Source: Escherichia coli (GTDB taxonomy: Bacteria > Pseudomonadota > Gammaproteobacteria > Enterobacterales > Enterobacteriaceae). Taken from it: DNA of 64,000 nucleotides. Each line of letters opens with the position of its first letter. Position 1 is the first letter of the stretch. This document shows positions 20,145-57,159 of the stretch, piece after piece. The DNA lies in assembly GCF_024502345.1 (NCBI RefSeq), contig NZ_JALDNN010000001.1. One strand, 5' to 3'. A program made the translations under genes and the position numbers. The notes under the pieces were generated by a model. That model saw only the letters and a list, made by a program, of their open reading frames with translations. It did no database searches and was not told the origin of the DNA.

Positions 20145-20220
20145 GCCCGGATAGCTCAGTCGGTAGAGCAGGGGATTGAAAATCCCCGTGTCCTTGGTTC
20201 GATTCCGAGTCCGGGCACCA
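20145..20220 (+). tRNA. pheU: tRNA-Phe (GAA anticodon)
   Basis: 76-nt GCCCGGATAGCTCAGTCGGTAGAGCAGGGGATTGAAAATCCCCGTGTCCTTGGTTCGATTCCGAGTCCGGGCACCA with anticodon loop TTGAAAA and 3-prime CCA; position after yjdC corresponds to pheU. Confidence 0.97.
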
Positions 20221-22490: not shown

Positions 22491-24520
22491 GTTACTTACC
22501 AATAGAAAGATTAGAACAATTAAGAATTGGATCTGTTGGATTTGTATCACCTAATGAAATTAGAGTTTCTTTAGAGATTGACTCCCCTGATTCAGTGTCA
22601 CTTCAAGGCGGTTCCCCCCGCAATTTTCCTCGAATAAATAGTTATGTACTGATCAGTAGCGATGATGGATTTCTCGTCGGACAGGTTGAATGGATTGCCG
22701 TAGAACACTCTCCATACCCCAAAAGAAGAGGCTTACAAGATTTTGGCTTGATAGATCTTCCTTTTCCACTTAAAAAGCTCAGTATCAATCCCGTTGGTAC
22801 TTTGAGAGTCGATAGAAAAAACGAAGATTACAAGTTCACAAGAGGAACAGATGCTTTTCCCTCGGTTGGTGACTCCGTGCTCCTGCCTACTGACCGGCAA
22901 TTAAAATCAATAATAGAATCAGGTGACAATAGAAGAGTAAAAATAGGGGACAGCCCCCTAGCTAACAATGCGGAAATAAAAGTGGACCCTGATAGGCTTT
23001 TTGGACGACATTTAGCTGTTTTGGGCAATACAGGTAGTGGTAAATCATGCTCGGTTGCGGGGTTAATTCAATGGTCTTTAGATGCTGTTTTACAACAGGG
23101 ACAGATTCCAAATGCTCGGTTCATAATACTTGATCCAAATGGAGAATACAGTAGGGCATTCGGCCCAGAATCAAAATACAAGGGTAAGCTATTACGTGTA
23201 GAAGCTAACACTGGTGCTGAAGAGATAGATCTTAAAGTTCCGTCATGGTTATGGAATAGCTCTGAGTGGGGTGCTTTCACTCAAGCGAGTTCAAAAGTTC
23301 AACTTCCTTTACTACGCCGAGCTTTGAGGGCGATGAGAAATGATGTTTTATCAGAAGATGATGTGACAATCCAAGCGAAACACTTCTGCGGTATCCTACT
23401 CGTATCCATACGACAATTATCAAGCCAAGGCCAGATATATGTGAATGGCGGCCATGCCAAAGGTTTCGTTGATAGTTTAACGTCTTGGAATAATAGCCTG
23501 TCCACATTAAACGACAAAATCGATAACAAACCTTTCGATAATCTAATAAACACGATGAATGTGTATCTTTCCTCTCGTATAGGAATAAAATGGCCTGAAA
23601 AACCTGAAGTTTCAGATACTGATCAGTTGATTAATGAATTAAAAAATGCATATGAAACGCTTGGAGGTGATGAACAAGGACTTCTTCCAAAAAGTGAAGA
23701 TTCGCCTATTCGTTTTAAAGGGGATGATTTTGTCGCATACCTAGAAGCTCTAGCTCAAGAGACAGGCACAGAGCAATTCGTTGAATTCCTTTTGACTCGT
23801 ATTCGAACAATGCTAGGTGACACCCGTATAAGTGCAGTAACAAATGATTCGGAACAGCCTATCAGTTTAACTAATTGGTTAGACACTTTTCTCGGTAGAG
23901 ATGGACAAGGTTCCATAACTGTTATCGATTTATCGCTAGTCCCTAATGAAATAATACATTTGGTAACTGCTGTAATTTCCAGAGTAACTTTTGAAGCATT
24001 ACAACGTTATCGAAGACTTAAGGGGAAACCACTACCAACAGTTATGGTTGCAGAAGAAGCGCATACATTTATTAAACGCTACAAAGAAGATAGTGAGGGT
24101 CAGTCAGTCTCTGACGTATGCTGCAAAGTGTTTGAAAAGATCGCACGTGAAGGCAGGAAATTTGGGTTAGGTCTTGTAGTTTCTTCCCAACGACCCTCAG
24201 AGCTATCTCCGACTGTGTTATCTCAATGTAATACTTTTTTGTTGCACAGGATTAGTAATGATAGAGATCAAGAGCAAGTCCATAGACTTGTTCCCGATAA
24301 CATGAGGGGGTTGTTGAGGGAGTTGCCATCGCTACCATCTCGGCATGCCATTCTACTAGGATGGGCTTCTGAACTTCCGGTTTTAGTTAGAATGAAAGAG
24401 CTTACTGAAAAACAAAGACCACAATCTGACGATCCCGATTTTTGGGATGTGTGGTCTAACACTACAGAAGAGCCTCGCGAAGTTAATTGGCAACCAATAG
24501 CTGATGATTGGCAAAGTTAA
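22487..24520 (+). CDS. HerA-like FtsK/HerA-family ATPase of the SIR2-HerA system
   Basis: 677-aa ORF with Walker A GNTGSGKS, Walker B MVAEEAH and SSQRPSEL region; start overlaps the SIR2 stop (ATGA). Confidence 0.8.
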   Translation: MSYLPIERLEQLRIGSVGFVSPNEIRVSLEIDSPDSVSLQGGSPRNFPRINSYVLISSDDGFLVGQVEWIAVEHSPYPKRRGLQDFGLIDLPFPLKKLSINPVGTLRVDRKNEDYKFTRGTDAFPSVGDSVLLPTDRQLKSIIESGDNRRVKIGDSPLANNAEIKVDPDRLFGRHLAVLGNTGSGKSCSVAGLIQWSLDAVLQQGQIPNARFIILDPNGEYSRAFGPESKYKGKLLRVEANTGAEEIDLKVPSWLWNSSEWGAFTQASSKVQLPLLRRALRAMRNDVLSEDDVTIQAKHFCGILLVSIRQLSSQGQIYVNGGHAKGFVDSLTSWNNSLSTLNDKIDNKPFDNLINTMNVYLSSRIGIKWPEKPEVSDTDQLINELKNAYETLGGDEQGLLPKSEDSPIRFKGDDFVAYLEALAQETGTEQFVEFLLTRIRTMLGDTRISAVTNDSEQPISLTNWLDTFLGRDGQGSITVIDLSLVPNEIIHLVTAVISRVTFEALQRYRRLKGKPLPTVMVAEEAHTFIKRYKEDSEGQSVSDVCCKVFEKIAREGRKFGLGLVVSSQRPSELSPTVLSQCNTFLLHRISNDRDQEQVHRLVPDNMRGLLRELPSLPSRHAILLGWASELPVLVRMKELTEKQRPQSDDPDFWDVWSNTTEEPREVNWQPIADDWQS

Positions 24521-24941: not shown

Positions 24942-25766
24942 CTAGGGTTTCAAGTATTCCCCTAAAGGAAAGAAATTTTTTGACAACTTTTGGGATTCAG
25001 CAATTTTAACCAAATAAATATAGAATCCCAACAGAGCACTGTTCTCGCTTTCCCCCCTCGAATAGTGAACATGCCCAGGCACCTTCCGGATGAGGAAACC
25101 ATTATTTTTTACCAAATAATACCCTCTATCTAAAATTGTAATTACATCAGGCATATCATCTAAATCGATATTATTTCCAGTCATGTAATTAAACAGCGAA
25201 TCTCGTAAGGTACTTTCCTCTGGACCTTGGAAGGCTAGTAGTAAGAATGGTGTTTTTCTCAAGGTTGCACACATCCCTGAGATTTCCTCTACTAATTGCA
25301 CTGTATTTTGGGGAATATTTTCTTTCATAAAATAACCATCGTCAATACCGATTGGATTGATTCTTACCAAACCTTTTGACCTAACGCAAGCATCTAAGGT
25401 TGTCTTAAGGTTTGAAGCTCCTTCGGTCATTGAGCCAGTGTTTAATGAAGATTTACATTCAATTAACGCTAAAGCTGAATCGACAGGGACCATACACTGA
25501 TCTTTATCATAACTAAGTTTTAAAGAATGTTTCGAGTATATGATAATATCCATCTGACTTGAGAGATTATCCTTAGAGTCAAAAACCTGTCCTGATGTAA
25601 TATCTAAATTACTAGGGAGATTTGCTTTTAAAAATTCCCTTATTACAATTTCTCTAGCACTTCCTTTGCTACTCCCGTTCGTCGTTATGGATGACAAATT
25701 AAATGCTGAAACCAAAGATGCCGTATGGTTTTTTAAGTGTTTCTGGATTAATTTCATAAAGCTCAT
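24942..25766 (-). CDS. hypothetical protein, possible PD-(D/E)xK-like nuclease
   Basis: 274-aa ORF in AT-rich DNA convergent with herA; candidate motifs E (GSAREIVI), D (MDIIIYS) and ExK (ALIECKS); no family assigned with confidence. Confidence 0.5.
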   Translation of the reverse strand: MSFMKLIQKHLKNHTASLVSAFNLSSITTNGSSKGSAREIVIREFLKANLPSNLDITSGQVFDSKDNLSSQMDIIIYSKHSLKLSYDKDQCMVPVDSALALIECKSSLNTGSMTEGASNLKTTLDACVRSKGLVRINPIGIDDGYFMKENIPQNTVQLVEEISGMCATLRKTPFLLLAFQGPEESTLRDSLFNYMTGNNIDLDDMPDVITILDRGYYLVKNNGFLIRKVPGHVHYSRGESENSALLGFYIYLVKIAESQKLSKNFFPLGEYLKP

Positions 25767-31423: not shown

Positions 31424-32468
31424 GGCTTTGTTGAATAAATCAGATTTCGGGTAAGTCTCCCCCGTAGCGGGTTGTGTTTTCAGGCAATACGCACGCTTTC
31501 AGGCATACCTGCTTTCGTCATTTTGTTCAGCGCTCGTACCAGGGCCATAGCCTCCGCAACCTGACCATCGTAGTCACGCAGCGTCAGTGAACCCCCGAAC
31601 AGCTGTTTTACCCGGTACATCGCCGTTTCCGCTATCGAGCGACGGTTGTAATCTGTTGTCCATTTCCACCGCGCATTACGCTGATTAGCCACTGCACGGT
31701 TACGGTCTGCATATTCACCGGGCCAGTAACCCGCACCTTTTCGGGGAGGGATAAGCGCGCTGATTTTCTTACGCCGCAGTTCATCGTGACAGAGCCGGGT
31801 GTCGTAAGCGCCGTCTGCCGATGCTGCCCTGATTTTTCTGTGAGTCTGCCGGATAAGACCCGGGAAGGCTTCTGAGTCCGTCACATTGTTCAGCGACAGG
31901 TCAGCGCAGATGATTTCATGTGTTTTACTGTCAACGGCGAGATGCAGCTTACGCCAGATACGGCGGCGTTCCTGGCCATGCTTTTTGACTTTCCACTCGC
32001 CTTCACCGAAGACCTTCAGCCCGGTGGAATCAATTACCAGGTGTGCGATTTCACCCCGGGTGGGCGTTTTGAAACTGACGTTAACCGACTTTGCCCGCCT
32101 GCTGACACAGCTGTAATCCGGGCAGCGTAGCGGAACGTTCATCAGAGAAAAAATGGAATCAATAAAGCCCTGCGCAGCGCGCAGGGTCAGCCTGAATACG
32201 CGTTTAATGACCAGCACAGTCGTGATGGCAAGGTCAGAATAGCGCTGAGGTCTGCCTCGTGAAGAAGGTGTTGCTGACTCATACCAGGCCTGAATAGCTT
32301 CATTATCCAGCCAGAAAGTTATGGAGCCACGGTTGATGAGGGCTTTATTGTAGGTGGGCCAGTTGGTGATTTTGAACTTTTGCTTTGCCACGGAACGGTC
32401 TGCGTTGTCGGGAAGATACGTGATCTGATCCTTCAACTCAGCAAAAGTTCGATTTATTCAACAAAGCC
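31424..32468 (-). mobile_element. IS5-family, IS903-group insertion sequence
   Basis: 18-bp terminal inverted repeats GGCTTTGTTGAATAAATC at 31424..31441 and 32451..32468, flanked by a 9-bp direct duplication GCCCTGAAG (31415..31423 and 32469..32477). Confidence 0.9.
31480..32436 (-). CDS. IS903-group transposase (DDE)
   Basis: 318-aa ORF filling the IS; C-terminal segment DGAYDTRLCHDELRRKKISALIPPRKGAGYWPGEYADRNRAVANQR recalled as IS903-type transposase. Confidence 0.85.
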   Translation of the reverse strand: MKDQITYLPDNADRSVAKQKFKITNWPTYNKALINRGSITFWLDNEAIQAWYESATPSSRGRPQRYSDLAITTVLVIKRVFRLTLRAAQGFIDSIFSLMNVPLRCPDYSCVSRRAKSVNVSFKTPTRGEIAHLVIDSTGLKVFGEGEWKVKKHGQERRRIWRKLHLAVDSKTHEIICADLSLNNVTDSEAFPGLIRQTHRKIRAASADGAYDTRLCHDELRRKKISALIPPRKGAGYWPGEYADRNRAVANQRNARWKWTTDYNRRSIAETAMYRVKQLFGGSLTLRDYDGQVAEAMALVRALNKMTKAGMPESVRIA

Positions 32469-32799
32469 GCCCTGAAGTAAGAAAATGGTAATAGACCCCA
32501 CCGATTTTCGACTAAAAAACAACCCAATAAGGCATTTAAAATTAATGCTATTTAAATCAATAGATTAAAGTGATGATTTTGACAATATGCAGCCCAACTT
32601 AAGGGTAAATCAACCTTTCAACAATCAAAACCACACTCCATTAATTTTTATTATTGTGACAATCATCACATTTTACACCTGCGGGTGCTTTGATTTTGTA
32701 CATTCACAAAGCTCACCAACCCCAACGACTATGAACGTAAAAAACCTCTTTTTATGCACATATTATTTCCATGTAAATCAATTCATTATGGAGATAATC

Positions 32800-34110: not shown

Positions 34111-34575
34111 ATGTACCGGCTTCTGCTGCTTAACTTCGTGGATTCATTTATCGATAACTGCATTCTGTCCTGCGTCGATGAACCGGCTTACGGCGGTATC
34201 GTGCAGTGCGAACTGCTTTTTGGCCTTGCCGCACACAGCGGTATCTATGTGGGTAACGGCGATATTGTTCATCTTGATGGCGATGGAACCGTTATCAAAA
34301 GTAAGGCTAAAGGTTTTCTTGACCGGCTCGATGGCTGGAACTCCGCTATCTCGGTGTATACCGACTGTATGGATTTGACGCCTCAGGGTTGTGCGCGGGC
34401 CGCTGAACGGGCAAAGGCGGCAGTGGGTCAGCGCTATCCTTATAGCCTGCTCGACTTTAACTGCCACCGGTTTACTGCCCGCTGCGTTACCGGCGATTCG
34501 TGCCCTGATATCTGGCTTGCCAGACACCTCGATACATTTCAGAAAGGGGACCGATGGCGCGTATGGCAACGATGA
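34111..34575 (+). CDS. LRAT/HRASLS-like papain-fold enzyme (gene 4 of the four-gene cassette)
   Basis: 154-aa ORF with AAHSGIYVGNGDIVHL (His42, His54) and DFNCHRF (Cys118), matching the LRAT-family His-His-Cys arrangement and NCEHF-type motif. Confidence 0.65.
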   Translation: MYRLLLLNFVDSFIDNCILSCVDEPAYGGIVQCELLFGLAAHSGIYVGNGDIVHLDGDGTVIKSKAKGFLDRLDGWNSAISVYTDCMDLTPQGCARAAERAKAAVGQRYPYSLLDFNCHRFTARCVTGDSCPDIWLARHLDTFQKGDRWRVWQR

Positions 34576-34793
34576 AAGCCAGCCGTTGCAGGCAACGTGT
34601 CACCGGACAGGGAGAACGGCTTATCCGGCTGACCATGGTGCTGTTTTACGGTCAGACAATATCTGTTCGCTACATCATCCGGCAGTTTGACGTGTCTCCC
34701 CGCACAGCAAGACGGGACCTCGCTCAACTGGCCTTTGTGCTGGAATCCGCTGGCCCTCACCTCTGGCGACTGGCTCCCTCGCTGAAACCCTGA
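34554..34793 (+). CDS. small HTH protein or N-terminal fragment of a WYL-type regulator
   Basis: 79-aa ORF with HTH-like segment TISVRYIIRQFDVSPRTARRDLAQL, resembling the N-terminus of the WYL regulator at 36249; overlaps the end of the LRAT-like gene in another frame. Confidence 0.4.
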   Translation: MARMATMKASRCRQRVTGQGERLIRLTMVLFYGQTISVRYIIRQFDVSPRTARRDLAQLAFVLESAGPHLWRLAPSLKP

Positions 34794-34867
34794 CTTTTTT
34801 CTCTGCCGGACATCTCCTGACCACCCCGTATGGCAGGCTGTCTCCGCTTTTCAATCCATAAGGGAAC

Positions 34868-35254
34868 ATGATGAAAATTTCTAAACTGTTAACCGCCACA
34901 CTTCTGCTTTCAGCCTTCAGCCACAGCGCATTTGCCGACGAGCAGGCTGACGCTCAGATGATAACCAACTCGACCTTCTGTGCGATGTACTCCACCCGCC
35001 TGACCCAGACCAGTGACAGCGGCCTTCAGGTAAAAGGCGTCAATCTCAATGCCCGCATCAACGGACCGGTATTCAACAGGGTACTTCAGGTGATGAACAA
35101 AACCTATGGCAGAACCTGGCTCGAATCAAATGCCCGTAACGGCAGCATGACCGCCATGCAGCTTTCGCAGTCGGAGCTGCTTTATAACCCGGAATATGCC
35201 CGGCAGTGCGATGCCTTTGCGGATAAAGTGGAAAAGGAATGGCGCGGAAAGTAA
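34868..35254 (+). CDS. hypothetical secreted protein
   Basis: 128-aa ORF with N-terminal signal peptide MMKISKLLTATLLLSAFSHSAFA; followed by a terminator. Confidence 0.6.
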   Translation: MMKISKLLTATLLLSAFSHSAFADEQADAQMITNSTFCAMYSTRLTQTSDSGLQVKGVNLNARINGPVFNRVLQVMNKTYGRTWLESNARNGSMTAMQLSQSELLYNPEYARQCDAFADKVEKEWRGK

Positions 35255-35287
35255 TCCCGACGCGTTATACCTCCATCCGGTGAACAG

Positions 35288-35314
35288 AAACCTGCTTTCG
35301 GGCAGGTTTTTTTT
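35288..35314 (+). terminator. rho-independent terminator
   Basis: AAACCTGC-TTTCG-GGCAGGTTT hairpin followed by a T run. Confidence 0.8.
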
Positions 35315-35396
35315 ACTTTTTTATTTTTCAGGCGGACAAACCCTGTCCGGGGGCTTCCTTAAACTGTCAGGTCCAATATCTGCAATGAGGTGAAAT

Positions 35397-36146
35397 ATGG
35401 CTACCTACCGACACGACCCTGATCTTGAATTTCTGCGCCACTGCCATCGTGACGATCTGGATTTACTGGTTTCTGTGCTTATCTGCGATCCGAAAGACGG
35501 ACTGGCACGCATCACGGAAACGCTGACCTATGATCCTCAGTATAAAAAACACAAGCCCAACCACCCGCGCTACTGGGATGCCATTGCCGCCGAGGTTCAG
35601 ACGTTTGGGGCGAACAGCTTTGCCACGCTGCTCCGCTGGGGTAAAGGGGTGCTGTACCGGGAAATTCTCACCGATGCCTGCGATAAAATGAAGGTGAACT
35701 ACAACAACAAATCCAGTGTTGAAACCATTGAAATGAATCTGCTGATGAAGATCCTGGAGAAAAGTCTTGAGAAGATGACGCCTGACCAGCTAAAGACCGT
35801 GGCGGAAGAATTGCAGACAGGCTACAGCAACCCCACGCCGGAGTTGCTGACCATGGCAATCCAGGCGGGGATAAAAACATCCGGGTTTGCGGCCTATCAG
35901 ATGGCACTTGTTGTCACAAATGGTGTGGCGAAAGCCCTGTTAGGCAGAGGGCTGACCGTTGCAGGAAATGCCATGCTGACGCGTACCATGGGCGCTTTTG
36001 CCGGTCCCGTGGGCTGGGTGCTCAGTTCTCTCTGGCTGCTGATTGATTTAGCCGGTCCCGCATACCGGGTGACGCTACCATCCTGCATTTTTATTGCCTA
36101 CATGCGCCAGAAGCATCTTTATTCACCTGAGAATACTGACGTTTAG
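35397..36146 (+). CDS. YaaW-like protein (UPF0174/DUF3944 family)
   Basis: 249-aa ORF; N-terminal DLEFLRHC and C-terminal GPVGW...AYRVTLP segments resemble E. coli YaaW as I recall it. Confidence 0.55.
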   Translation: MATYRHDPDLEFLRHCHRDDLDLLVSVLICDPKDGLARITETLTYDPQYKKHKPNHPRYWDAIAAEVQTFGANSFATLLRWGKGVLYREILTDACDKMKVNYNNKSSVETIEMNLLMKILEKSLEKMTPDQLKTVAEELQTGYSNPTPELLTMAIQAGIKTSGFAAYQMALVVTNGVAKALLGRGLTVAGNAMLTRTMGAFAGPVGWVLSSLWLLIDLAGPAYRVTLPSCIFIAYMRQKHLYSPENTDV

Positions 36147-36248
36147 CACTTACATTTAAGGTATTCAGACTTTAAAAAACTTCAGAGGGCGGACAAATCC
36201 TGTCCGCTACTGCTGGCATCATTTCCCGGCTAAATTCGGAAATGATGT

Positions 36249-36962
36249 ATGACGCTGATAACACAAGAAAACGAACATGACAGACTGGCAACCCGCCTTT
36301 CCATCATCCTGAGCCGTTTGTTTCAGGGTGAAAAGCTGCATATCGGGACGCTGGCAGAAGAATTTGGAGTGACGACGCGAACGCTGCGACGGGATTTCAA
36401 CGTCCGTCTGACCTACCTTGATATTGAACAGAGCAACGGCGTGTATCAGCTTGCCTCACATTACTTTCGTCGCCGCACGGAACGGGATATGAAGATACTG
36501 GCGAGGTTGCTGCATCTTGACCGTCTGTTACCCGCGATGGATGCCAAACTACTGAGCCTGATGCTTGACGGGGAACGTCCCTCGCCATACAGGATTATGC
36601 TACCGGAGCCGCGCCAGAAACCCACCCTTTTCGGTGATTTCAGCAGACTGACGCTCGCCATACTTAACCAGACCCAGGTGCGTATCAGAACCGACGAAAA
36701 CGTCAGCCATACCGTTCATCCCTACCGTCTGCTTTGCAGCCATGCGGAGTGGTTTCTTGCCGGATGTACGTCATCGGGCGTGTTCGTTATTTCCCTGTCC
36801 CGAATCAGGCTGGTTGAGGTATTACCGGATACAACGTTTGAGATCGATAACACACTCATTTCGCTGATTGAACAGTCTGACTTTATGGAAGCCTTACCCC
36901 ACATGAACATTATTCATCAGATAATGCATTACGGGAGTAAACAGACGAATAATCGTAATTAA
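36249..36962 (+). CDS. WYL-domain transcriptional regulator (BrxR/CapW-like)
   Basis: 237-aa ORF with N-terminal HTH (HIGTLAEEFGVTTRTLRRDF) and WYL-type motif (HPYRLLCSHAEWFLAGC); sits upstream of restriction genes. Confidence 0.7.
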   Translation: MTLITQENEHDRLATRLSIILSRLFQGEKLHIGTLAEEFGVTTRTLRRDFNVRLTYLDIEQSNGVYQLASHYFRRRTERDMKILARLLHLDRLLPAMDAKLLSLMLDGERPSPYRIMLPEPRQKPTLFGDFSRLTLAILNQTQVRIRTDENVSHTVHPYRLLCSHAEWFLAGCTSSGVFVISLSRIRLVEVLPDTTFEIDNTLISLIEQSDFMEALPHMNIIHQIMHYGSKQTNNRN

Positions 36963-37002
36963 AATCACAACATATTATTAGTGATGATTAAATCACATTA
37001 AC

Positions 37003-37332
37003 ATGATAAGTGAGAAAGTTATGATTATCGATAAAGAATACGCACTTGTAAATGCAACAGCAAGACTTAACACTGACCTGAGGGATTATGAATATGAAAT
37101 AAACAACGCCGCCATCATAACATTTGGCAATGACCTCATTGAGGTAATCGTATATCAGTTCAGCTTTGTCATCAGCATCAGGGCAGAGGGTGAAAAAATA
37201 AAGCACGGCCTACTTGTTAACTTCGGTAAAAATATAGCAAGACAGGTTTCATCACTTTGTGCATCCGCAATGCGAGTCTACCCGAATGAAAAACACAAAC
37301 CGAGCCGTCAGCTTTTCCATTGCATAAATTAG
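37003..37332 (+). CDS. hypothetical protein
   Basis: 109-aa AT-rich ORF between the WYL regulator and the type IV restriction gene; may be non-coding. Confidence 0.3.
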   Translation: MISEKVMIIDKEYALVNATARLNTDLRDYEYEINNAAIITFGNDLIEVIVYQFSFVISIRAEGEKIKHGLLVNFGKNIARQVSSLCASAMRVYPNEKHKPSRQLFHCIN

Positions 37333-37393: not shown

Positions 37394-39271
37394 ATGAGGT
37401 TTATGATGGCTGGCCAGTATGAAAAAGCAATAACGATAAAACAAGCGATAGATTCAATTAATTTACGCCACTATCTTCTGCCTGCAATTCAGAGGAAGTT
37501 CGTCTGGAGCAGCAGTCAAATATGTTTGCTGTTTGATTCCATCATGCGAGACTACCCGATAAACTCTTTCATGATGTGGGATATCCGTAGTGCCAGTATT
37601 AAAAATGATTACAAATTCTATGAATTCCTGAAAGAATACTGTCAGCGATTTAATGAAGAAAACCCCTGCGTAGCAACAAATGCTGGATTTCATGATTTCA
37701 AGGCGGTGATTGATGGTCAGCAGCGTCTCACATCATTATATATTGGATTGTGTGGAACGTATGCGTATAAACAGCCCCGGGTGTGGTGGCCTTCGGCACA
37801 GGATGATCGCATCCTGCCGCCCAGAAAGCTTTACGTCGATTTAACAGCGCCACTTAATTCAGACGATGAGCTCATGATGAAGTATAACTTCAGGTTCCTG
37901 ACCGACAAGCAATACGCTGATTCACTTACAGACAACAAGCATCACTGGTTCTGCCTGCACGAAATATTCAAATACGAGCAACATGATTCGCCTGATGATA
38001 TTTTATTTAACGTTGTCGTACCAGAACTCGAAAAAAGAGGACTCATTTCCAGTGAATTTTCCAGAAAAACATTACTGAGACTTTATACAAAAATAAGAAC
38101 TGAGAACATCATCCACTACTTCAATGAGAGTAGTCAGGATATTGACCATGTGCTGGATGTTTTCATACGCACGAACAGCGGGGGGACAAAACTTGAGTTC
38201 TCCGACTTACTGATGTCAATAGCGGTAGCGCACTGGCAGGGTGATTTCAGAAGAGAACTGGATGAACTGACAAAAAACATTTATCAGAATAATGAAATGG
38301 GGTTTTATATTGAAAGAGACTGGTTCTTAAAAACCAGCCTGATGCTTATTGACTCTGACGTCCGGTTCAAAGTAAAAAACTTCACTTCAGAGGAGGTCGG
38401 TAAGATACAACAACAATGGTCTGAAATAAAATCCTGCATCAAGGAGACTTTTATTCTTATCAGGCGATTCGGCATCAATCCACAGTCTTTGATATCTAAA
38501 AATGCAGTCATTCCTGTGGTCTACTGGCTTTACAAAAAGCAAACCAGTGGACATCCATTATATACAACGATTAACCTCCTGAATAAAAACCACAATGAAC
38601 GCTCAGTAATTAGCCAGTGGTTTTACATGGTACTTCTGAAAGGGATCTTTGGAAGCCAGGCAGATGCGCTACTCACGAGTATCAGAGATGTAATGAAAAA
38701 TAGTCTTTCAGATATTCACTTTCCTCTTGAAAAGATTATTGACAGATATAAAGGCTCGAATAAAGACCTCAGATTTGACGACGAATACATCGAAAGCCTT
38801 CTCAATATCAGATATGGCGAAGGTCGTTGCCGCGCACTATTGCATCTTCTGTTCCCTGAAATGAATCCGACCGAGGTGTTTCATATTGATCACCTTCACC
38901 CAAGAAATCACTTCTCAAAGAAATATCTTGAAAAATTAGATTATGTTGCGAACTCACCAGAGAACCTCAGCTTTTATGAAAACCCGGAACACTGGGACAC
39001 CATACCTAATCTTCATTTACTGAATCATTCTCAGAATATAAGTAAACAGGATACTTCCCTGAAACAATGGCTATCTCAGCCATCAAACAACTATTCGCCA
39101 TCAATGCTGTTAGTTTCAGATGAAAATATTGAGTTCAGTCGCTTCCCGGAATTCTACAATGAACGAAGAAACGCCCTGAAGCAAAGACTACTGAATCGGG
39201 TATTTCTTACAACAAAAATAGATTCATCACCATCCACAATCGATACGGATGAAGAAATTCTCACCGACTGA
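37394..39271 (+). CDS. GmrSD-family type IV restriction endonuclease (DUF262 + DUF1524)
   Basis: N-terminal DUF262 hallmark DGQQR (in KAVIDGQQRLTSLYIG) and C-terminal His-Me finger-like HIDHLHPRNH; likely start at ATG 37406 after GAGG. Confidence 0.8.
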   Translation: MRFMMAGQYEKAITIKQAIDSINLRHYLLPAIQRKFVWSSSQICLLFDSIMRDYPINSFMMWDIRSASIKNDYKFYEFLKEYCQRFNEENPCVATNAGFHDFKAVIDGQQRLTSLYIGLCGTYAYKQPRVWWPSAQDDRILPPRKLYVDLTAPLNSDDELMMKYNFRFLTDKQYADSLTDNKHHWFCLHEIFKYEQHDSPDDILFNVVVPELEKRGLISSEFSRKTLLRLYTKIRTENIIHYFNESSQDIDHVLDVFIRTNSGGTKLEFSDLLMSIAVAHWQGDFRRELDELTKNIYQNNEMGFYIERDWFLKTSLMLIDSDVRFKVKNFTSEEVGKIQQQWSEIKSCIKETFILIRRFGINPQSLISKNAVIPVVYWLYKKQTSGHPLYTTINLLNKNHNERSVISQWFYMVLLKGIFGSQADALLTSIRDVMKNSLSDIHFPLEKIIDRYKGSNKDLRFDDEYIESLLNIRYGEGRCRALLHLLFPEMNPTEVFHIDHLHPRNHFSKKYLEKLDYVANSPENLSFYENPEHWDTIPNLHLLNHSQNISKQDTSLKQWLSQPSNNYSPSMLLVSDENIEFSRFPEFYNERRNALKQRLLNRVFLTTKIDSSPSTIDTDEEILTD

Positions 39272-39474
39272 ACGTTCAGCCCCGATAGTATTGGGGCTTC
39301 AGTATTTATCATCAGCGCAACGTTTCTACTGGCCTGGCTGAAAGAGCATTGGCTACACAACCGGGCAAACGAACTCTCAGTGCAACGTATGACATACAAA
39401 GCCTGTCATCAATATGAAATTGCGATAAAATCGGGCCAATAACAGTACTTAAGAATCATACAACAGGATACAAA

Positions 39475-41031
39475 ATGACAAGCCTTCAGCAGCGTGCAGA
39501 GCTACACCGTCAAATCTGGGCCATTGCCAATGATGTCAGAGGCTCCGTAGATGGGTGGGATTTTAAACAGTATGTACTCGGTGCACTTTTCTACCGCTTC
39601 ATCAGTGAGAATTTTTCCAGCTACATGGAAGCAGGGGATGAGAGCATACATTATGCAGCACTTGATGACAGCATCATTACCGATGACATCAAAGACGATG
39701 CCATCAGGACTAAAGGCTATTTCATCTACCCGAGCCAGCTGTTCTGCAACGTTGCCGCTAAAGCGAACACCAACGACAGGCTGAATGCTGATTTAAACAG
39801 TATCTTCGTCGCTATAGAAAGCTCTGCCTACGGCTACCCGTCAGAGGCCGACATCAAAGGCCTGTTCGCCGATTTCGATACGACCAGCAATCGACTGGGG
39901 AACACAGTTAAAGACAAAAACAGCCGTCTTGCCGCGGTTCTGAAAGGGGTTGAAGGGTTAAAACTTGGTGACTTCAACGAACATCAGATTGACCTGTTCG
40001 GTGATGCCTATGAGTTCCTGATTTCTAACTATGCCGCAAATGCCGGTAAGTCAGGCGGTGAGTTCTTTACACCGCAGCACGTCTCCAAGCTGATTGCACA
40101 ACTGGCTATGCACGGGCAGACCAGCGTTAACAAAATCTACGACCCGGCAGCGGGTTCCGGCTCACTGTTGTTGCAGGCGAAAAAACAGTTTGATAACCAC
40201 ATCATCGAAGAAGGCTTTTTCGGTCAGGAAATCAACCATACGACCTATAACCTGGCGCGTATGAACATGTTTTTGCACAATATCAACTACGACAAGTTTG
40301 ATATCAAGCTGGGTAATACACTGACTGAGCCGCACTTCAGAGATGAAAAACCGTTTGACGCCATCGTATCTAATCCACCGTATTCGGTGAAATGGATTGG
40401 CAGCGATGACCCGACGCTGATTAACGATGAACGTTTTGCCCCGGCTGGCGTTCTGGCCCCCAAATCCAAAGCTGACTTTGCGTTTGTATTACATGCACTG
40501 AACTATCTTTCTGCCAAAGGTCGTGCTGCGATTGTCTGCTTCCCGGGTATTTTTTACCGTGGCGGCGCAGAGCAGAAAATCCGTCAATATCTGGTCGACA
40601 ATAACTATGTCGAAACCGTGATTTCACTGGCACCGAACCTGTTCTTTGGCACCACCATTGCCGTCAATATTCTGGTGCTGTCTAAACATAAAACGGATAC
40701 CAAAGTTCAGTTTATTGATGCCAGCGAATTATTCAAAAAAGAGACTAACAACAATATCCTGACCGATGCCCATATCGAACAGATTATGCAGGTATTTGCC
40801 AGCAAGGAAGATGTTGCTCATCTGGCGAAATCTGTCGCGTTTGAGACCGTTGTCGCTAATGACTATAACCTGTCGGTGAGCTGCTATGTAGAAGCGAAAG
40901 ATAACCGCGAAATTATCAATATTGCTGAGCTAAATGCAGAGCTTAAAACTACGGTTAGCAAAATCGACCAGTTGCGTAAAGATATTGATGCGATTGTGGC
41001 TGAAATTGAAGGCTGCGAGGTGCAGAAATGA
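39475..41031 (+). CDS. hsdM: type I restriction-modification system methyltransferase subunit
   Basis: 518-aa ORF with SAM-binding [11 protein letters not shown] and catalytic NPPY (IVSNPPYS) motifs. Confidence 0.9.
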
Positions 41032-42200
41032 GCGAGTTGAGTTATCTGGAAAAATTGCTGGATGGGGTTGAGGTTGAGTGGAAATCATTGGGAGATGTTG
41101 TAAATTTTCAGCGCGGAAGGCGGCTCGTAAAATCTCAGTTAGAAACCAGAGGTAAATATGCGGTTTACCAAAACAGCATGACACCACTCGGTTACTATCA
41201 TGAGTATAATGTCGCAGCTCAATCTTCGTTCATTATCTGTGCGGGTGCAGCCGGTGAAATTGGTTATAGCGAAAATGAATTTTGGGCTGCCGACGATGTT
41301 CATTTCGCAATCACACCAGAATATATAAATGACAGGTTTTTGTTTCATTTTTTGTTGACGCAAAAGAATAAAATTTCAGGACAAGTACGCCGTGCCAGTA
41401 TTCCGCGTCTCTCAAAGTCAGTAATTGAAAAACTTGAATTCCCCATCCCCTGCCCGGATAATCCGGAAAAGTCCCTTGCCATCCAGTCTGAAATCGTTCG
41501 GATTCTGGATAAATTTACTGCACTTACCGCTGAGCTTACCGCTGAGCTTAACATGCGTAAAAAACAGTACAACTACTATCGCGACCAGTTGCTGAGTTTT
41601 GATGAGGGTGAGGTTGAGTGGAAGGCTTTGGAGGAAGTCTCAACTTTTGCTAATGGAAAGGGGCATGAAAAAGACATATCAGAAGACGGTAAATATATTG
41701 TTGTAAACTCTAAGTTTATATCTACCAATGGCGAAGTCGCCAAGTTATCAAACAAACAGCTATGCCCTCTTTTTAAAGACGATATTCTTTTGGTTATGAG
41801 TGACCTGCCCAATGGCAAAGCACTTTCAAAAACATTTATTGTTGATGAAGATCATAAATACACTTTAAACCAACGTATTGGTGGAATTACAGTAAAAAAC
41901 AGTAATGAATTACTCCCTAAGTTTTTGCACTATTTTTTAAATAGAACCCCGCAATTGCTGAAACATGACAATGGTGTTGATCAAACAAATTTGCGTAAAG
42001 GTCAAATACTTGAAGTAAAAATACCAATAATTTCACTCATCAAACAAGTTCAGATCGTTGAAACTCTTGATAAATTCGATACTTACACTAAGTCGATTTC
42101 AGAAGGCCTCCCGCGCGAAATCGAGCTGCGCCATAAACAGTACGAGTACTATCGTGATTTATTGTTCAGCTTCCCGAGACCAGAAACCGCCAGCAACTGA
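41028..42200 (+). CDS. hsdS: type I restriction-modification system specificity subunit
   Basis: 390-aa ORF with two target-recognition halves and repeated conserved segments (EVEWKSL...[15 protein letters not shown]; EVEWKAL...[15 protein letters not shown]); start overlaps the hsdM stop. Confidence 0.9.
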
Positions 42201-42316
42201 CGGACCATTGATACCGGCAGGGTTTGTTCTCACCCGCCCGGTATCAGGCTTTAAGAATGCCGGAAGATGCTTCTGATACCCTTCCGGAATTTGCCAGATG
42301 ACGCACAGGATGCACC

Positions 42317-45300
42317 ATGACACAACAGATACACACCATTGCTGAATCCAATAACTTTATCGTCCTTGATAAATACACCAAAGTTCTGGAGAACGGCGAC
42401 AGCTACCAGAGCGAATCGGATCTTGAGCGGGAACTGATTCAGGACCTTCTGAATCAGGGCTATGAATTTATATCCGTTAAGTCACCGACAGCGATGCTGG
42501 CGAATGCACGGGACCAGCTTCAGCATCTTAATGGTGTGGTGTTTAACGAAAGTGAATGGCGGCGCTTCGCAGAGCAGTATCTGGACAGCCCCAGTGACAG
42601 CAGCCTGGACAAAACTCGTAAAATCCATATCGACTATATCTGTGATTTCACGTTTGATGACGGTCGTCTGGAAAACATCTATCTGATAGATAAAAAGAAC
42701 CTGCTGCGCAATAAGGTGCAGGTCATTCAGCAGTTTGAACAGACCGGCTCACACGCTAACCGTTATGACGTCACCATTCTGGTTAACGGCCTGCCACTGG
42801 TGCAAATCGAACTCAAAAAGCGCGGCGTGGCTATTCGTGAAGCCTTTAACCAGATACACCGTTACAGCAAGGAAAGCTTTAACAGCGACAACTCCCTGTT
42901 TAAATACCTGCAACTGTTTGTGATATCTAACGGAACCGATACCCGGTACTTTGCCAGTACCACTAAGCGGGATAAAAACAGCTTTGATTTCACCATGAAC
43001 TGGGCGAAGTCGGATAACACTCTGATTAAGGACCTGAAGGACTTTACCGCCACCTTCTTCCAGAAACATACCCTGCTGAATGTTCTGTTTAATTACAGCG
43101 TGTTTGACAGCAGCCAGACTCTGCTCGTCATGCGCCCCTATCAGATTGCCGCCACTGAGCGAATCCTCTGGAAAATTAACAGCTCATTTAAAGCGAAGAA
43201 TTGGTCAAAACCCGAAAGCGGCGGGTTTATCTGGCATACCACCGGGTCAGGCAAAACCCTGACCAGTTTTAAGGCTGCACGACTGGCAACCGAACTGGAC
43301 TTTATAGACAAAGTCTTCTTCGTGGTCGACAGAAAAGACCTTGATTACCAGACAATGAAGGAGTATCAGCGCTTTTCTCCGGACAGCGTCAACGGTTCGG
43401 ATAATACAGCAGGCCTCAGAAGAAACCTGGATAAGGACGATAACAAAATCATCGTCACAACCATTCAGAAACTCAATAACCTGATGAAAGCCGAAGCTGA
43501 CCTGCCCGTCTATCAGCAGCAGGTAGTGTTTATCTTTGATGAGTGTCACCGCAGCCAGTTTGGTGAGGCCCAGAAAAACCTCAAAAAGAAATTCAGACGC
43601 TTTTATCAGTTTGGTTTTACCGGTACGCCTATTTTCCCGGAAAATGCACTGGGGGCAGAAACCACAACCAGCGTGTTCGGGCGTGAGTTACATTCTTACG
43701 TCATTACTGATGCGATTCGTGATGAAAAAGTACTGAAGTTTAAGGTGGACTATAACGATGTCCGCCCACAGTTTAAGTCTCTTGAAACGGAAACAGACGA
43801 GAAAAAACTCAGCGCGGCTGAAAACCAACAGGCATTTTTGCACCCCCTGCGTATCCAGGAAATAACGCAATACATTCTCAATAACTTCCGGCAGAAAACA
43901 CACCGAACCTTCCCGGGAGCTAAGGGCTTTAACGCCATGTTAGCAGTTAGCAGCGTGGACGCGGCGAAAGCTTATTACACGACGTTTAAAATGCTACAGG
44001 AAGAAGCAGAGAAGAAATCTGGCAGCTATAAATGCCTTCGGGTGGCAACCATCTTCTCCTTTGCTGCAAATGAAGAGCAAAGCGCCATTGGTGATATTAC
44101 TGACGAAAGCTTTGATACCAGTGCAATGAACAGCAGCGCGAAGGAATTCCTGGATTCAGCCATTGATGACTATAACAATCACTTTAAAACCAATTTCAGC
44201 ACCGACAGTAACGGTTTCCAGAACTACTACCGCAATTTAGCTCAACGAGTGAAAAATCAGGATATTGACCTTCTCATCGTGGTGGGAATGTTCTTGACTG
44301 GCTTTGATGCCCCGACGCTTAACACTCTTTTCGTTGACAAAAACCTCCGTTATCACGGCCTGATGCAGGCATTTTCCCGCACAAACCGTATCTATGATGC
44401 CACCAAAACCTTCGGCAATATCGTGACTTTCAGGGATCTGGAGCGTCCGACCATTGATGCCATCACACTATTTGGCGACAAAAACACCAAGAATGTGGTG
44501 CTGGAAAAAAGCTACGAAGAGTACATGCAGGGCTTTACCGATGCGGCAACCGGTGAGGCTAAACGAGGTTTTATGGCTGTTGTTTCGGAGCTGGAGCAGC
44601 GCTTCCCTGACCCTGCCAGTATCGACAGTGAAAAAGAGAAAAAAGCCTTCGTCAAACTGTTTGGTGAATATCTGCGGGCAGAAAACATCCTGCAAAACTA
44701 TGATGAATTTGCCACGCTGAAAGCCCTGCAGAAGGTTGATATTAGTGACCCGGAAGCGGTAGAAACCTTTAAAGCAGAGCACTATGTGGATGATGAAAAA
44801 TTTGCTGAATTACAAACCATTCGTCTCCCGGCAGAACGTAAAGTTCAGGACTATCGCTCAGCATACAATGATATCCGGGACTGGCAGCGACGCGAAAAAG
44901 CATCAAACGACAGGGATAAATCAACCACAGACTGGGATGACGTGGTGTTTGAAATTGACCTGCTGAAGTCGCAGGAAATTAACCTGGATTACATCCTTGG
45001 TCTGATTTTCGACCACAATCGTCAGAAAAAAGGTAAAGAAGCCCTGACTGAAGAGGTCAGACGCTTAATCCGCTCAAGTCTGGGCAACCGTGCCAAAGAA
45101 GGTCTGATTGTTGACTTTATTCAGCAAACTAACCTTGATGACATGCCGGACAAGGCCAGTATCATTGATGCATTCTTTACCTATGCTCAGCGTGAACAGC
45201 AACGGGAAGCAGAGGCGTTGATTAAGGAAGAAAACCTCAATGAAGAGGCTGCAAGGCGCTATATCCGCACATCACTAAAACGGGAGTATGCCACCGAAAA

Positions 45301-45433
45301 TGGGACGGAGCTAAATGAGACGCTACCAAAGCTCAGTCCGCTGAATCCTCAGTACAAAACGAAAAAGCAGACTGTATTCCAGAAAATTGGGGCATTTATC
45401 GAAAAATTTAAAGGGGTTGGAGGACACCTCTAG
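42317..45433 (+). CDS. hsdR: type I restriction enzyme R subunit (helicase/endonuclease)
   Basis: 1038-aa ORF with helicase motifs RPYQ, TGSGKT and DECH (IFDECHRSQ). Confidence 0.9.
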
Positions 45434-45654
45434 ATGTCAGATAAAAGAACAATGCGCTACCGCAATTTATGGGTAAGATTGTATCTTTTAACCTGCATCA
45501 GACCTGTTATGATCGATGAGGCGCTGGTTAATGTTAATGCTAACTGGATGAGTTTTAATCGCTGATTCAGACAATTAGCGTCCAGAACTCACAGAAACCA
45601 GTGCTTGATTTTGGATGGTAAAGTGCTGAACGGACGTATCACAGGAGAATGCTT

Positions 45655-45993
45655 ATGAGCGTAACTATAAAAGACGATCGACTCCGTACCATCGCTACCT
45701 TTGACGGTAAAACCCTGAAAGACGACCGGCTCAGGACCATCGCAACGTTTGACGGTAAAACCCTGAAAGACGACCGGCTCAGAACCATCTCAACTTTTGA
45801 CGGTAAAACCCTGAAAGACGACCGACTCCGCACCATCGCTACCTTTGATGGCAAGACCCTGAAAGACGATCGACTCCGCACCATCGCAACATTTGATGGT
45901 AAAACACTTAAAGACGATCGACTCAGAACCATCGCGACAGTTAATGGTAATGTTAGTATTGTTGTTTTGGCGTTTGCTGCTCGGCTATTTTAG
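45655..45993 (+). CDS. hypothetical tandem-repeat protein
   Basis: ORF after AGGAGA with five full and one partial 16-aa repeats (DDRLRTIATFDGKTLK), encoded by 48-bp tandem DNA repeats; could instead be a non-coding minisatellite. Confidence 0.4.
   Translation: MSVTIKDDRLRTIATFDGKTLKDDRLRTIATFDGKTLKDDRLRTISTFDGKTLKDDRLRTIATFDGKTLKDDRLRTIATFDGKTLKDDRLRTIATVNGNVSIVVLAFAARLF
45667..45960. repeat. 48-bp tandem repeat array, about six copies
   Basis: Near-identical units AAAGACGAYCGRCTCMGNACCATCGCNACNTTTGAYGGYAARACCCTG repeated head to tail. Confidence 0.85.
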
Positions 45994-46270: not shown

Positions 46271-46319
46271 GGGATTGAAAATCCCCGTGTCCTTGGTTCG
46301 ATTCCGAGTCCGGGCACCA
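46271..46319 (+). repeat. 49-bp direct repeat of the tRNA-Phe 3-prime end (island junction, att-site core)
   Basis: GGGATTGAAAATCCCCGTGTCCTTGGTTCGATTCCGAGTCCGGGCACCA is identical to tRNA-Phe positions 20172..20220. Confidence 0.95.
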
Positions 46320-49603: not shown

Positions 49604-49762
49604 CGGAGTATATCGACAACATTATTATGAAGAGAACAGGATAATAAAAATCAGAAATTATCTGTAAAACAGATAACAGACAACCCTGCAGTATAATTAC
49701 TGCAGGGTGTTTCCTTTTAATTACAGAAGATAAGTAATTATTATCTTTCAGGAGCAGTTTCG

Positions 49763-51374: not shown

Positions 51375-51445
51375 TTACCTGCTCCCCGTTGATTAATACA
51401 CCGTGATGTTAGTAATGTCTTCATAAGCCACATGAGGACATCCCC

Positions 51446-51709: not shown

Positions 51710-51732
51710 CGACAGACCAGAAGCGGGAAGCC

Positions 51733-57146: not shown

Positions 57147-57159
57147 AGCTCCCCTTTTC

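Follow-up and report, generated by a model that had tools for sequence, protein, structure and literature searches.

A conserved stand-alone winged-helix gene and a shared candidate operator in the jukA-bearing backbone of an Escherichia coli integrative island

Does a 79-codon open reading frame that overlaps the end of an LRAT-like gene encode a regulator in its own right, or is it what recombination left of a longer one? A preliminary description of this E. coli locus, made from the sequence of a 64-kb window (the whole stretch of DNA analysed, 64,000 nt), noted that the HTH segment of the ORF resembles the N-terminus of a WYL regulator encoded at 36249, and considered two origins: a truncated paralogue produced by recombination between defence modules, or a genuine small regulator of the neighbouring cassette. 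The ORF is present where it had been placed (Table 1), and we refer to it and to its product as HTH79.

Table 1. Features of the module, in order along the window.
Feature	Position	Strand	Basis or remark
LRAT/PLAAT-like gene (NlpC/P60 superfamily), 154 aa	34111..34575	+	Pfam LRAT E 9.7e-11
HTH79, small stand-alone winged-helix protein, 79 aa	34554..34793	+	ATG start; Pfam HTH_DeoR 26.4 bits
O1, operator-like site GGACATCTCCTGACC (GACA-N5-TGAC)	34808..34822	.	Centre 53 nt upstream of sec128 start codon
sec128, secreted 128-aa protein	34868..35254	+	Sec signal peptide, two invariant Cys
Intrinsic terminator	35286..35320	+	11-pair stem, 4-nt loop, T run
O2, operator-like palindrome CGGACAAACCCTGTCCG	35333..35349	.	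Centre 56 nt upstream of jukA start codon
jukA-family gene (YaaW, DUF3944 + Cbp3-like), 249 aa	35397..36146	+	PADLOC JukA E 3.5e-72
O3, operator-like palindrome CGGACAAATCCTGTCCG	36190..36206	.	Centre 51 nt upstream of WYL gene start codon
HTH-WYL regulator, 237 aa, YafY-like, short C-terminus	36249..36962	+	Pfam HTH_DeoR + WYL
Closing orphan of backbone, 103-109 aa	37003..37332	+	In all related loci, including Tatumella

HTH79 and its relatives

Comparative sequence analysis identifies HTH79 as a functional and conserved gene for a complete, stand-alone winged-helix protein with a predicted DNA-binding role. The ORF is intact in the 12 loci from which dN/dS was estimated at 0.05-0.24 (codons 19-79), with dS above 1 in the most divergent pairs. 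Its length stays at 71-79 aa in all related loci as identity falls from 99% to ~35%, and is conserved through the Enterobacteriaceae and Hafniaceae; nearly all of 38 homologues have 76-79 aa, and stand-alone relatives, more distant ones included, span 71-84 aa. P0100, the remotest of the small relatives analysed, lies on a 657-bp contig on which the upstream gene is uninformative. Frameshifted or shortened versions occur in a few assemblies (P0026, P0037 and 52-aa annotations). Searches for the small HTH family found no relative in viral_contigs and no match among plasmids. The first 18 residues are disordered, basic and variable, and a complete wHTH follows them, matching Pfam HTH_DeoR above its gathering cut-off of 21 bits (E 5.9e-6). 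The AF2 model (pLDDT 77; shallow input alignment, 12 sequences) comprises three helices and a wing, all complete (H19-31, H38-45, H49-58, E63-67, E70-73).

Length conservation, low dN/dS, the complete wHTH model and a PGAP annotation as a DeoR-type regulator all speak for the genuine small regulator among the two origins first considered. The truncated paralogue finds no support as a recent event: the ORF has not decayed, and no WYL-domain remnant lies 3′ of it because the next gene is only 75 nt away. A truncated pseudogene was rejected on dN/dS, length conservation and fold.

The likeness to the WYL regulator held up on formal alignment. Against the N-terminus of the 36249 protein, BLASTP returned 33% identity over 43 aa (E 1e-4); against that protein's family, profile-profile comparison with hhalign gave a probability of 96% and E 4.5e-9 over 57 columns, which is the whole winged helix; and the PADLOC WYL profile matched HTH79 at positions 4-42 (E 3.5e-6). 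Among 1.84 billion representative proteins, the best full-length matches were HTH-WYL-WCX proteins, aligned at their N-termini. The N-terminally matched representatives that were checked comprised four WYL-WCX proteins, one with WCX only and one with no Pfam match, and none was a classical DeoR regulator. The sole PDB sequence match was the N-terminus of BrxR (7qfz), and a fold search ranked CapW and BrxR among the top TM-scores. These sequence comparisons group the HTH79 domain with the DNA-binding domains of WYL regulators in one winged-helix clade. The polypeptide stops at residue 79, directly past the wing, with no Pfam WYL match, so that it is not itself a WYL regulator and is only a relative of the DNA-binding domain of that family; since this kinship is real, an ancient origin as a DNA-binding-domain-only paralogue is plausible. 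The motif of its recognition helix, S/T-x-R-T-x-R-R-D, is common to DeoR/HTH_11 domains in general. HTH79 thus shares with DeoR-family regulators an HTH motif above the Pfam HTH_DeoR cut-off, but lacks their C-terminal sugar-phosphate-binding domain, and the PGAP name of its RefSeq entry (WP_071977973.1, 'DeoR family transcriptional regulator') covers the motif only.

The neighbouring genes

The LRAT-like protein upstream matches PLAAT2/3 sequences in the PDB in alignments that pair the His/His/Cys (NCHRF) residues, and H42, H54 and C118 are invariant among seven divergent homologues; PADLOC gave no match for it. The end of its gene overlaps the start of HTH79 by 22 nt in a different frame, in agreement with the preliminary description. 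Overlaps of 22, 19, 17, 4 and 1 nt were found in loci that are 99% to ~35% identical, and in every island-borne locus, including L025 and L023, the HTH gene begins before the LRAT gene ends. This consistency makes translational coupling of the two genes probable.

Downstream of HTH79, the signal-peptide protein noted earlier proved to be a conserved one, here called sec128, with a typical Sec signal (MMKISKLLTATLLLSAFSHSAFA, then DE) retained in eight homologues. Its AF2 model is an all-alpha bundle (pLDDT 86.8) that matched no PDB fold at E < 1, and the protein had no match in Pfam, PADLOC, NCBIfam or PHROG. The strong terminator described after this gene is likewise confirmed at 35286-35311, where an 11-pair stem runs into a string of T, and is conserved in the aligned jukA upstream regions. 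Rfam, searched at E <= 1 over the intergenic regions, returned just two chance-level matches, one of them the terminator itself, and a structured RNA was rejected.

The next gene had been described as YaaW-like, which is consistent with its Pfam matches (DUF3944 and Ubiq_cyt_C_chap) and with its RefSeq names ('YaaW family' or 'DUF3944 domain-containing'). The preliminary description had missed that, by sequence, it is a full-length JukA homologue: the match to PADLOC JukA covers positions 4-239 of 245, and the protein also falls in PHROG 13238 (E 4.9e-75). A PADLOC scan of the eight flanking proteins detected no JukB, so the locus is at most a JukA-only or JukA-WYL variant. WYL is the commonest reported defence-associated neighbour of jukA, and some JukA homologues protect alone (10.1101/2022.09.17.508391). 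The locus resembles the Juk JukA/JukB system in its full-length JukA homologue and adjoining WYL gene. It differs from that system in lacking JukB and in the position of jukA, which here belongs to an island backbone, has a candidate operator of its own and lies downstream of a terminator; an anti-jumbo-phage role is predicted from its sequence.

The protein encoded at 36249 has the expected two domains (HTH_DeoR, E 2.3e-6; WYL, 22.1 bits against a cut-off of 21.8) and matches PADLOC WYL at positions 1-219 of 229 (3.2e-15). No WCX dimerisation domain was matched at E <= 0.1, and its sequence identifies it as a short WYL-regulator variant, with 31% identity to the WYL-WCX regulator of L025 (310 aa). 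It is comparable to BrxR and CapW, and more distantly to PafBC and DriD, in having an N-terminal wHTH, a WYL domain and adjoining defence genes; the palindromes ahead of its own and of the neighbouring genes add to the likeness with BrxR and CapW, as does the wHTH of HTH79, which is of the same clade. In contrast to BrxR and CapW, the 36249 protein is short (237 aa) with no WCX match, and HTH79 has neither WYL nor WCX.

Island backbone and candidate operators

These genes lie in a 26-kb integrative island at tRNA-Phe (20221-46319), flanked by direct repeats and containing two tyrosine recombinases, DUF2787, a WYL protein, orphans and, between the integrases, a DUF927 protein. A backbone operon (orf117, orf143, DUF2787, LRAT, HTH) diverges from the integrase/DUF927 genes. 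Defence cargo occupies both sides of the backbone genes, in two modules, and the variable cargo on one side begins after the closing orphan. HTH79, sec128, jukA and the WYL gene are conserved island backbone and not cargo, a point that had gone unnoticed. A 36249-family WYL regulator accompanies HTH79 in every locus of sufficient length; L023 and L027, whose length does not allow the WYL gene to be scored, were left out of this comparison. The Tatumella locus has neither the small HTH gene nor sec128, jukA, the WYL gene or any copy of the motif, and keeps the LRAT gene (catalytic triad intact), the closing orphan, the integrases and DUF927. L024 carries the small HTH, jukA, WYL and the motif beside BREX brxL, outside the island, the small HTH being downstream of brxL and without LRAT. 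L025 is a distant version in which the small HTH is kept with the backbone and jukA is missing.

A further observation absent from the preliminary description is that sec128, jukA and the WYL gene share a palindromic candidate operator, GACA-N5-TG(T/A)C, 51-60 nt upstream of their start codons. Across loci this spacing holds in 22 of 23 cases. The 6.3-kb module contains three sites against 0.31 expected from shuffles, and the motif is rare elsewhere, with ~9 stray matches in the remaining sequence of all loci; the exact form CGGACA-N5-TGTCCG has only two matches in the window, both in promoter regions and O2 among them. Half-sites are conserved and the spacer varies across divergent loci, a conservation that is partly inheritance because the loci are evolutionarily related. 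All divergent loci have a site at the O1 position, the L005 copy (GGACACATCCTGGCA) being degenerate and failing the pattern scan.

Which of the two winged-helix proteins would recognise these sites? Covariation between recognition helices and half-sites is uninformative, since both are invariant. In Hafnia, the motif precedes the gene for a 38%-identical WYL regulator carried by an unrelated island, and HTH79 is absent. In L025, three copies precede the gene for the WYL-WCX homologue, and the same 13-mer as in those copies is also found 3′ of the small HTH gene. As the motif always accompanies a WYL regulator, and once does so without HTH79, the data assign this candidate operator to the WYL regulator rather than to HTH79. 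In the three intergenic regions that carry the candidate operators, a simple sigma-70 scan detected no promoter; its only sites lay around 36938-37052, upstream of orf109. The integrase/orf117 intergenic region contains neither GACA-N5-TGTC nor another conserved palindrome and is highly variable except for a promoter-like ACATATTAT box; this box also lies upstream of orf109 and is kept in Tatumella, which lacks HTH79. An HTH79 operator in the integrase/orf117 region was rejected on these grounds.

Possible control of the cassette

On balance we lean towards a reading in which the small winged-helix and WYL regulators bracket a JukA payload, the palindromes are WYL operators and HTH79 acts on the cassette. 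The HTH79 and WYL genes would flank a payload cassette that here carries mainly a predicted JukA-type anti-jumbo-phage protein. The spacing of the half-sites, one turn of the helix, suggests that the WYL regulator binds as a dimer, and it may link expression of the payload and of itself to a signal that its WYL domain senses; by analogy, it might either repress, like BrxR and CapW, or activate, like PafBC and DriD. HTH79 would be a ligand-blind transcription factor, produced from the upstream backbone operon and acting on the same cassette, most likely at the same GACA half-sites, the first of which lies directly 3′ of its own gene. Were HTH79 and the WYL regulator to act on the same operators, this would give a compact model for the control of a JukA-type defence gene by a mobile island. 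A more specific version, which we put forward with considerable doubt, is that HTH79 is a DNA-binding-domain-only WYL paralogue that occupies the same GACA half-sites as a ligand-blind competitor or co-occupant and so sets the induction threshold of a portable cassette. To our knowledge, no WYL regulator has been described that pairs with a separate protein consisting of a DNA-binding domain only, and a two-regulator logic of this kind would be new for WYL-regulated defence genes such as jukA.

The overlap with the LRAT-like gene allows a different reading, which we consider unlikely, namely a two-gene toxin-antitoxin or abortive-infection pair in which HTH79 would serve the LRAT-like enzyme as DNA-binding antitoxin or immunity protein. 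A PLAAT-like phospholipase/acyltransferase would then be the effector that damages membranes, restrained by the product of the overlapping downstream gene. The persistence of the overlap over wide divergence in all island-borne loci and the invariant catalytic His/His/Cys fit such a pair, and JukA systems can use phospholipase effectors (Nat Commun 2026 review, PMC13282480). Against it, however, Tatumella retains an LRAT protein with an intact triad and no HTH79, and L024 has the small HTH without LRAT; these two loci, in which co-occurrence fails, weaken an obligate pair. HTH79 adds to its wHTH only a variable disordered N-terminal tail and no further domain, and the LRAT-like protein is without a PADLOC match.

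About equally improbable is a role for HTH79 in the island life cycle, as a repressor of the integrase, of DUF927 replication or of excision genes, or as a recombination directionality factor, with no particular tie to the JukA/WYL cassette. Small HTH proteins are often island regulators or excisionases, and HTH79 both ends a backbone operon that diverges from the integrase/DUF927 genes and stays with the backbone in distant L025, which lacks jukA. The integrase/orf117 region, however, offers no conserved palindrome, the small HTH of L024 travels with jukA and WYL beside BREX outside the island, and Tatumella lost HTH79 together with the jukA/WYL block while its integrases and DUF927 remain; a DeoR-type wHTH is, moreover, probably not the usual excisionase fold.

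That the ORF is a non-functional N-terminal remnant of a recombination-truncated WYL regulator is highly improbable: its wHTH is clearly of the WYL-regulator type and a few assemblies carry broken or shortened variants, but purifying selection is strong with synonymous divergence saturated, length is conserved and the domain complete including the wing, the 75 non-coding nt before the next gene hold no WYL-coding remnant, and in a consistent fashion the LRAT stop and the start of the ORF stay coupled.

The locus is a useful annotation and not a new kind of system, and it neither opens nor closes a long-standing question. The main gain is improved annotation of a module present in ~2% of complete E. 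coli genomes and in other genera: a 'DeoR family regulator' becomes a WYL-type winged helix that lacks a sensor domain, a 'DUF3944/YaaW' gene becomes a JukA homologue, and one candidate operator common to the three genes downstream of HTH79 is directly testable.

By gene content, the island is similar to pipolins and to 'piPolB-less, pipolin-like islands' (PMC11551731), with which it shares two tyrosine recombinases, DUF2787, a WYL protein and orphans around the integrase, defence cargo in two modules, tRNA integration and direct repeats. That report makes no mention of LRAT, a small HTH or JukA. Unlike pipolins, the island has no piPolB (Pfam scans of all large ORFs in 20221-46319 found no polymerase), carries DUF927 between its integrases and uses a tRNA-Phe site. 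A search for distant DNA matches in E. coli found no diverged copies of the module, which is thus unrelated to pipolins at the DNA level. The module was detected in 112 of 5426 complete E. coli genomes, and also in Enterobacter, Citrobacter, Kluyvera, Buttiauxella, Pseudocitrobacter and Edwardsiella.

A conserved small winged-helix gene

Each element named in the preliminary description (a 79-codon ORF, a signal-peptide protein, a terminator, a YaaW-like gene and a regulator) was found in the window, with the LRAT-like gene and the 79-codon gene, HTH79, overlapping by 22 nt in different frames according to the ORF listing and the sequence. That description left two readings of HTH79, a truncated paralogous regulator produced by recombination or a genuine small regulator. 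A word-indexed search returned 38 homologues (99% to 67% identity), nearly all of 76-79 aa, and the ORF was intact in 12 of 12 cases, comprising the window and 11 loci from E. coli, Buttiauxella, Pseudocitrobacter, Enterobacter, Kluyvera and metagenome contigs. Codons 19-79 gave dN/dS values of 0.05-0.24 (Nei-Gojobori), with dS of 1.1-2.6 between the most divergent pairs. Codons 1-18 are variable (omega 0.3-1.3), and the recurring 'MARMA' start arises largely because the invariant C-terminal WRVW of LRAT is read in the other frame. An AlphaFold2 model built on the family alignment (pLDDT 77) has a disordered N-terminus, helices at 19-31, 38-45 and 49-58 and a beta hairpin at 63-73, and predicts a complete winged helix. 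Moreover, the stop codon lies only 75 nt from the next gene, leaving no space for a decayed WYL domain. The intact ORFs, the constraint on codons and length, the modelled fold and the short gap speak against a recombination remnant, and the truncated-paralogue reading is rejected; the proposal of a genuine small regulator was right. PGAP names the product a DeoR family transcriptional regulator (WP_071977973.1).

The resemblance first noted between HTH79 and the N-terminus of the WYL regulator encoded at 36249 is borne out by formal alignment. BLASTP aligned HTH79 to this 237-aa protein with 33% identity over 43 residues (E 1e-4), and hhalign matched the HTH79 family profile (12 members) to the WYL-regulator profile (11 homologues) with a probability of 96% (E 4.5e-9). 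The match spans 57 columns, residues 20-76 of HTH79 against 14-71 of the WYL family, which is the entire winged helix including the wing. Searched against 1.84 billion representative proteins, the HTH79 profile gave just 36 matches at E <= 1e-3. The closest were further stand-alone proteins of 71-84 aa, followed by the N-termini of 293-300 aa proteins with Pfam HTH_11, WYL and WCX domains; no classical DeoR regulator was present among the checked proteins from this search. The sole PDB sequence match was the BrxR N-terminus (7qfz, E 0.39). Foldseek returned generic winged helices for the model, none reaching E <= 0.001, with CapW (TM 0.67, 30% identity) and BrxR (TM 0.64) among the top TM-scores. 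These data are compatible with HTH79 being an ancient offshoot of WYL regulators that consists of the DNA-binding domain alone.

Features of the window discussed in the text
Feature	Coordinates	Strand	Basis or description
tRNA-Phe gene	20145-20220		
SIR2-like gene	21072-22490		tRNA-proximal cargo
HerA-like ATPase gene	22487-24520		DUF87
DUF6602 gene	24942-25766	-	tRNA-proximal cargo
IS5-family transposase gene	31480-32436		DDE_Tnp_1_5 and DDE_Tnp_1
Box upstream of orf117	32741-32790		
LRAT-like gene	34111-34575	+	Pfam LRAT; start as used by PGAP in homologous loci
HTH79, 79 codons	34554-34793	+	Pfam HTH_DeoR, 26.4 bits vs cut-off 21
Candidate operator O1	34808-34822		Degenerate copy
sec128, 128 codons	34868-35254	+	ORF listing
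Terminator (stem-loop and T-run)	35286-35311	+	Sequence scan
Candidate operator O2	35333-35349		CGGACA-N5-TGTCCG
YaaW-like gene, 249 codons	35397-36146	+	Pfam DUF3944 and Ubiq_cyt_C_chap
Candidate operator O3	36190-36206		CGGACA-N5-TGTCCG
WYL regulator gene, 237 codons	36249-36962	+	Pfam HTH_DeoR and WYL
Box upstream of orf109	36965-36995		
Distal cargo	37394-45433		HEC-05, hsdM, hsdS, hsdR
Bflower_2 protein	45649-45993		
Repeat of tRNA-Phe 3' end	46297-46319		23 nt, exact
P4-type integrase	46517-47782		
Second island genes	48104-60845		
EptA-like transferase	48104-49603	-	

Candidate operators and the genes they accompany

WYL regulators such as BrxR, CapW, PafBC and DriD act as dimers on palindromic sites in the promoters of their own and adjacent genes. 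In the window, GGCGGACAAAyCCTGTCCG was found upstream of both the jukA homologue (the YaaW-like gene) and the WYL gene. The pattern CGGACA-N5-TGTCCG has two exact matches in the whole 64-kb window, at these two positions, and a degenerate copy, GGACATCTCCTGACC, lies between HTH79 and sec128, the gene for the signal-peptide protein. The relaxed pattern GACA-N5-TG(T/A)C was seen three times in the 6.3-kb module against 0.31 expected from shuffles. The scanned loci have matches at the same three intergenic positions, the copy 3' of the small HTH gene in L005 being too degenerate for the relaxed pattern, and elsewhere about nine strays occur, summed over all loci. Conservation holds for the half-sites but not for the 5-nt spacer, and the motif centre is 51-60 nt upstream of the next start codon in 22 of 23 cases. 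Since the half-sites are one helical turn apart, the motif suits a dimeric winged-helix protein.

Comparison of loci indicates that the motif goes with the WYL regulator family. Hafnia alvei has a WYL regulator of 38% identity in an unrelated CP4-57-like island without the small HTH gene or jukA, and the regulator gene has GGTCATAACCTGTCC 68 nt upstream of the start codon. A distant version of the island (L025/L026) has LRAT and a small HTH gene (71 aa, 1-nt overlap) without jukA; a 310-aa WYL-WCX homologue of the window regulator (31% identity, E 2e-26) is encoded 2 kb away on the opposite strand, with three motif copies upstream of its gene and the same 13-mer after the small HTH gene. In L024, the order is small HTH gene, terminator, motif, jukA, two motif copies and WYL gene, this block being immediately 3' of the BREX gene brxL and not within such an island. 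Tatumella jointly lacks the small HTH gene, sec128, jukA, the WYL gene and all motif copies, and its LRAT gene (catalytic triad intact) adjoins the closing orphan, orf109.

Among contigs long enough to show one, a WYL regulator accompanied the small HTH gene every time, and the two genes bracket a variable payload. In the window it consists of sec128 and jukA, in Edwardsiella an extra 117-aa ORF is added to these two, L024 has jukA only, and L025 has GRAM-domain and 261-aa proteins. The individual parts are of known kinds; the arrangement, in which a small HTH protein and a WYL regulator are paired around the payload, adds modestly to these and can be tested. The 117-aa ORF between sec128 and jukA also occurs in a metagenome contig. 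Extra backbone insertion slots are located at 7300-7653 in L002, 7620-7973 and 9798-11161 in L018 and 7702-8055 in L022; the L018 slot between the WYL gene and the closing orphan holds a TM2-domain gene and a 243-aa gene. In Kluyvera georgiana (L016, 10700-12216), approximately 1.4 kb of additional DNA, probably an insertion, separates sec128 from the jukA operator.

We propose that the 36249 protein binds O1-O3 and would thereby tie expression of sec128, jukA and its own gene to the signal sensed by its WYL domain. No sigma-70-like promoter was detected in the operator-bearing intergenic regions, and the control may be either repression or activation; no structured RNA was found in the intergenic regions. 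HTH79 would be expressed as part of the upstream backbone operon, with its translation probably coupled to that of LRAT, and may act, ligand-free, at the same half-sites as the WYL regulator. This is the most economical guess, given that its domain falls in the same clade and that its gene is always followed by an operator copy; the recognition-helix motif common to both proteins is generic for this HTH class. In L024, GTGACATGTCAAAAGTGTC (~1640-1660), upstream of the small HTH gene standing alone after brxL, has GACA/TGTC half-sites at spacings other than 5 nt, which may point to recognition of single half-sites by the small protein.

A role for HTH79 in island maintenance is possible, but outside the island the small HTH gene travels with jukA and the WYL gene, and inside it the three are lost together. 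A toxin-antitoxin pairing of LRAT with HTH79, which the conserved overlap would fit, is weakened by the occurrence of LRAT without the small HTH gene and of the small HTH gene without LRAT.

The payload products

The YaaW-like product matches PADLOC JukA models (E 3.5e-72, positions 4-239 of 245). The Juk anti-jumbo-phage system uses JukA, previously called YaaW, as its sensor (10.1101/2022.09.17.508391; PMC13282480). The jukA gene is reported to have WYL-domain and restriction-modification genes as its commonest defence-associated neighbours, and some JukA proteins are reported to give protection on their own (10.1101/2022.09.17.508391). By sequence similarity the gene encodes a homologue of JukA; its pairing with a WYL neighbour has been recorded before. 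PADLOC gave no JukB match among neighbouring proteins. The best NCBIfam match of the JukA homologue is PRK10236, which scores far under its cut-off (E 3.4e-26) and is described as 'acidic protein MsyB', a label that looks inconsistent with YaaW/JukA.

The sec128 product has an n-region, hydrophobic core and AFA|D cleavage motif, all kept in 8 homologues, whose alignment also shows two invariant cysteines. The prediction is an all-alpha bundle in the periplasm, probably with one disulfide; family and fold searches gave no match.

The tRNA-Phe island

An exact repeat of the tRNA-Phe 3' 23 nt delimits, with the gene itself, a 26.1-kb element. From the tRNA, the order is SIR2-like, HerA-like, DUF6602, tyrosine recombinase, DUF927 protein, second recombinase, IS5-family insertion, orphans of 117 and 143 aa, DUF2787, LRAT, HTH79, sec128, YaaW-like, WYL regulator and a 103-109 aa orphan, after which come the GmrSD-like HEC-05 gene and the genes of a type I restriction-modification system. 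Gene order between the first recombinase and the 103-aa orphan is the same in related loci, which differ in the genes beyond that orphan and beside the tRNA, so the genes from HTH79 to the WYL regulator are backbone, not cargo. The module is present at >= 80% coverage and 94-99% identity in 112 of 5426 complete E. coli genomes.

Gammaproteobacterial pipolins have two recombinases, DUF2787, a WYL protein, orphans and two cargo modules, and 'piPolB-less, pipolin-like islands' have been named (PMC11551731). The window island shares these features, a likeness of layout only, but lacks piPolB; LRAT, the small HTH protein and JukA are not mentioned in that paper. The region is better described as the conserved backbone of a tRNA-Phe defence island, pipolin-like by layout. 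As read from sequence, this backbone encodes a stand-alone WYL-type winged-helix protein, a secreted protein and a JukA homologue, which a candidate operator links to the WYL regulator.

The SIR2-like and HerA-like cargo looks like a defence pair of the SIR2-HerA type. The IS5-family insertion, between the second integrase and the operon beginning with orf117, is absent from E. coli locus L001 and may separate the backbone operon from its native upstream region. A ACATATTATT...AAATCA box lies upstream of both orf117 and orf109. It is kept in every locus, Tatumella among them, where both regulators are missing, and the backbone operon and the cargo-proximal orphan may share it as a promoter element. 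The distal cargo begins with a GmrSD-like DUF262 protein (PADLOC HEC-05, E 3.9e-231), followed by the type I genes, with the Bflower_2 protein beyond them. As the P4-type integrase comes after the second repeat, two islands lie in tandem at one tRNA-Phe gene. The second encodes an EptA-like phosphoethanolamine transferase, an outer-membrane beta-barrel, IS1 and IS3 transposases and an AraC regulator, as well as two P-type metal ATPases, a MerR regulator and a cation-diffusion facilitator.
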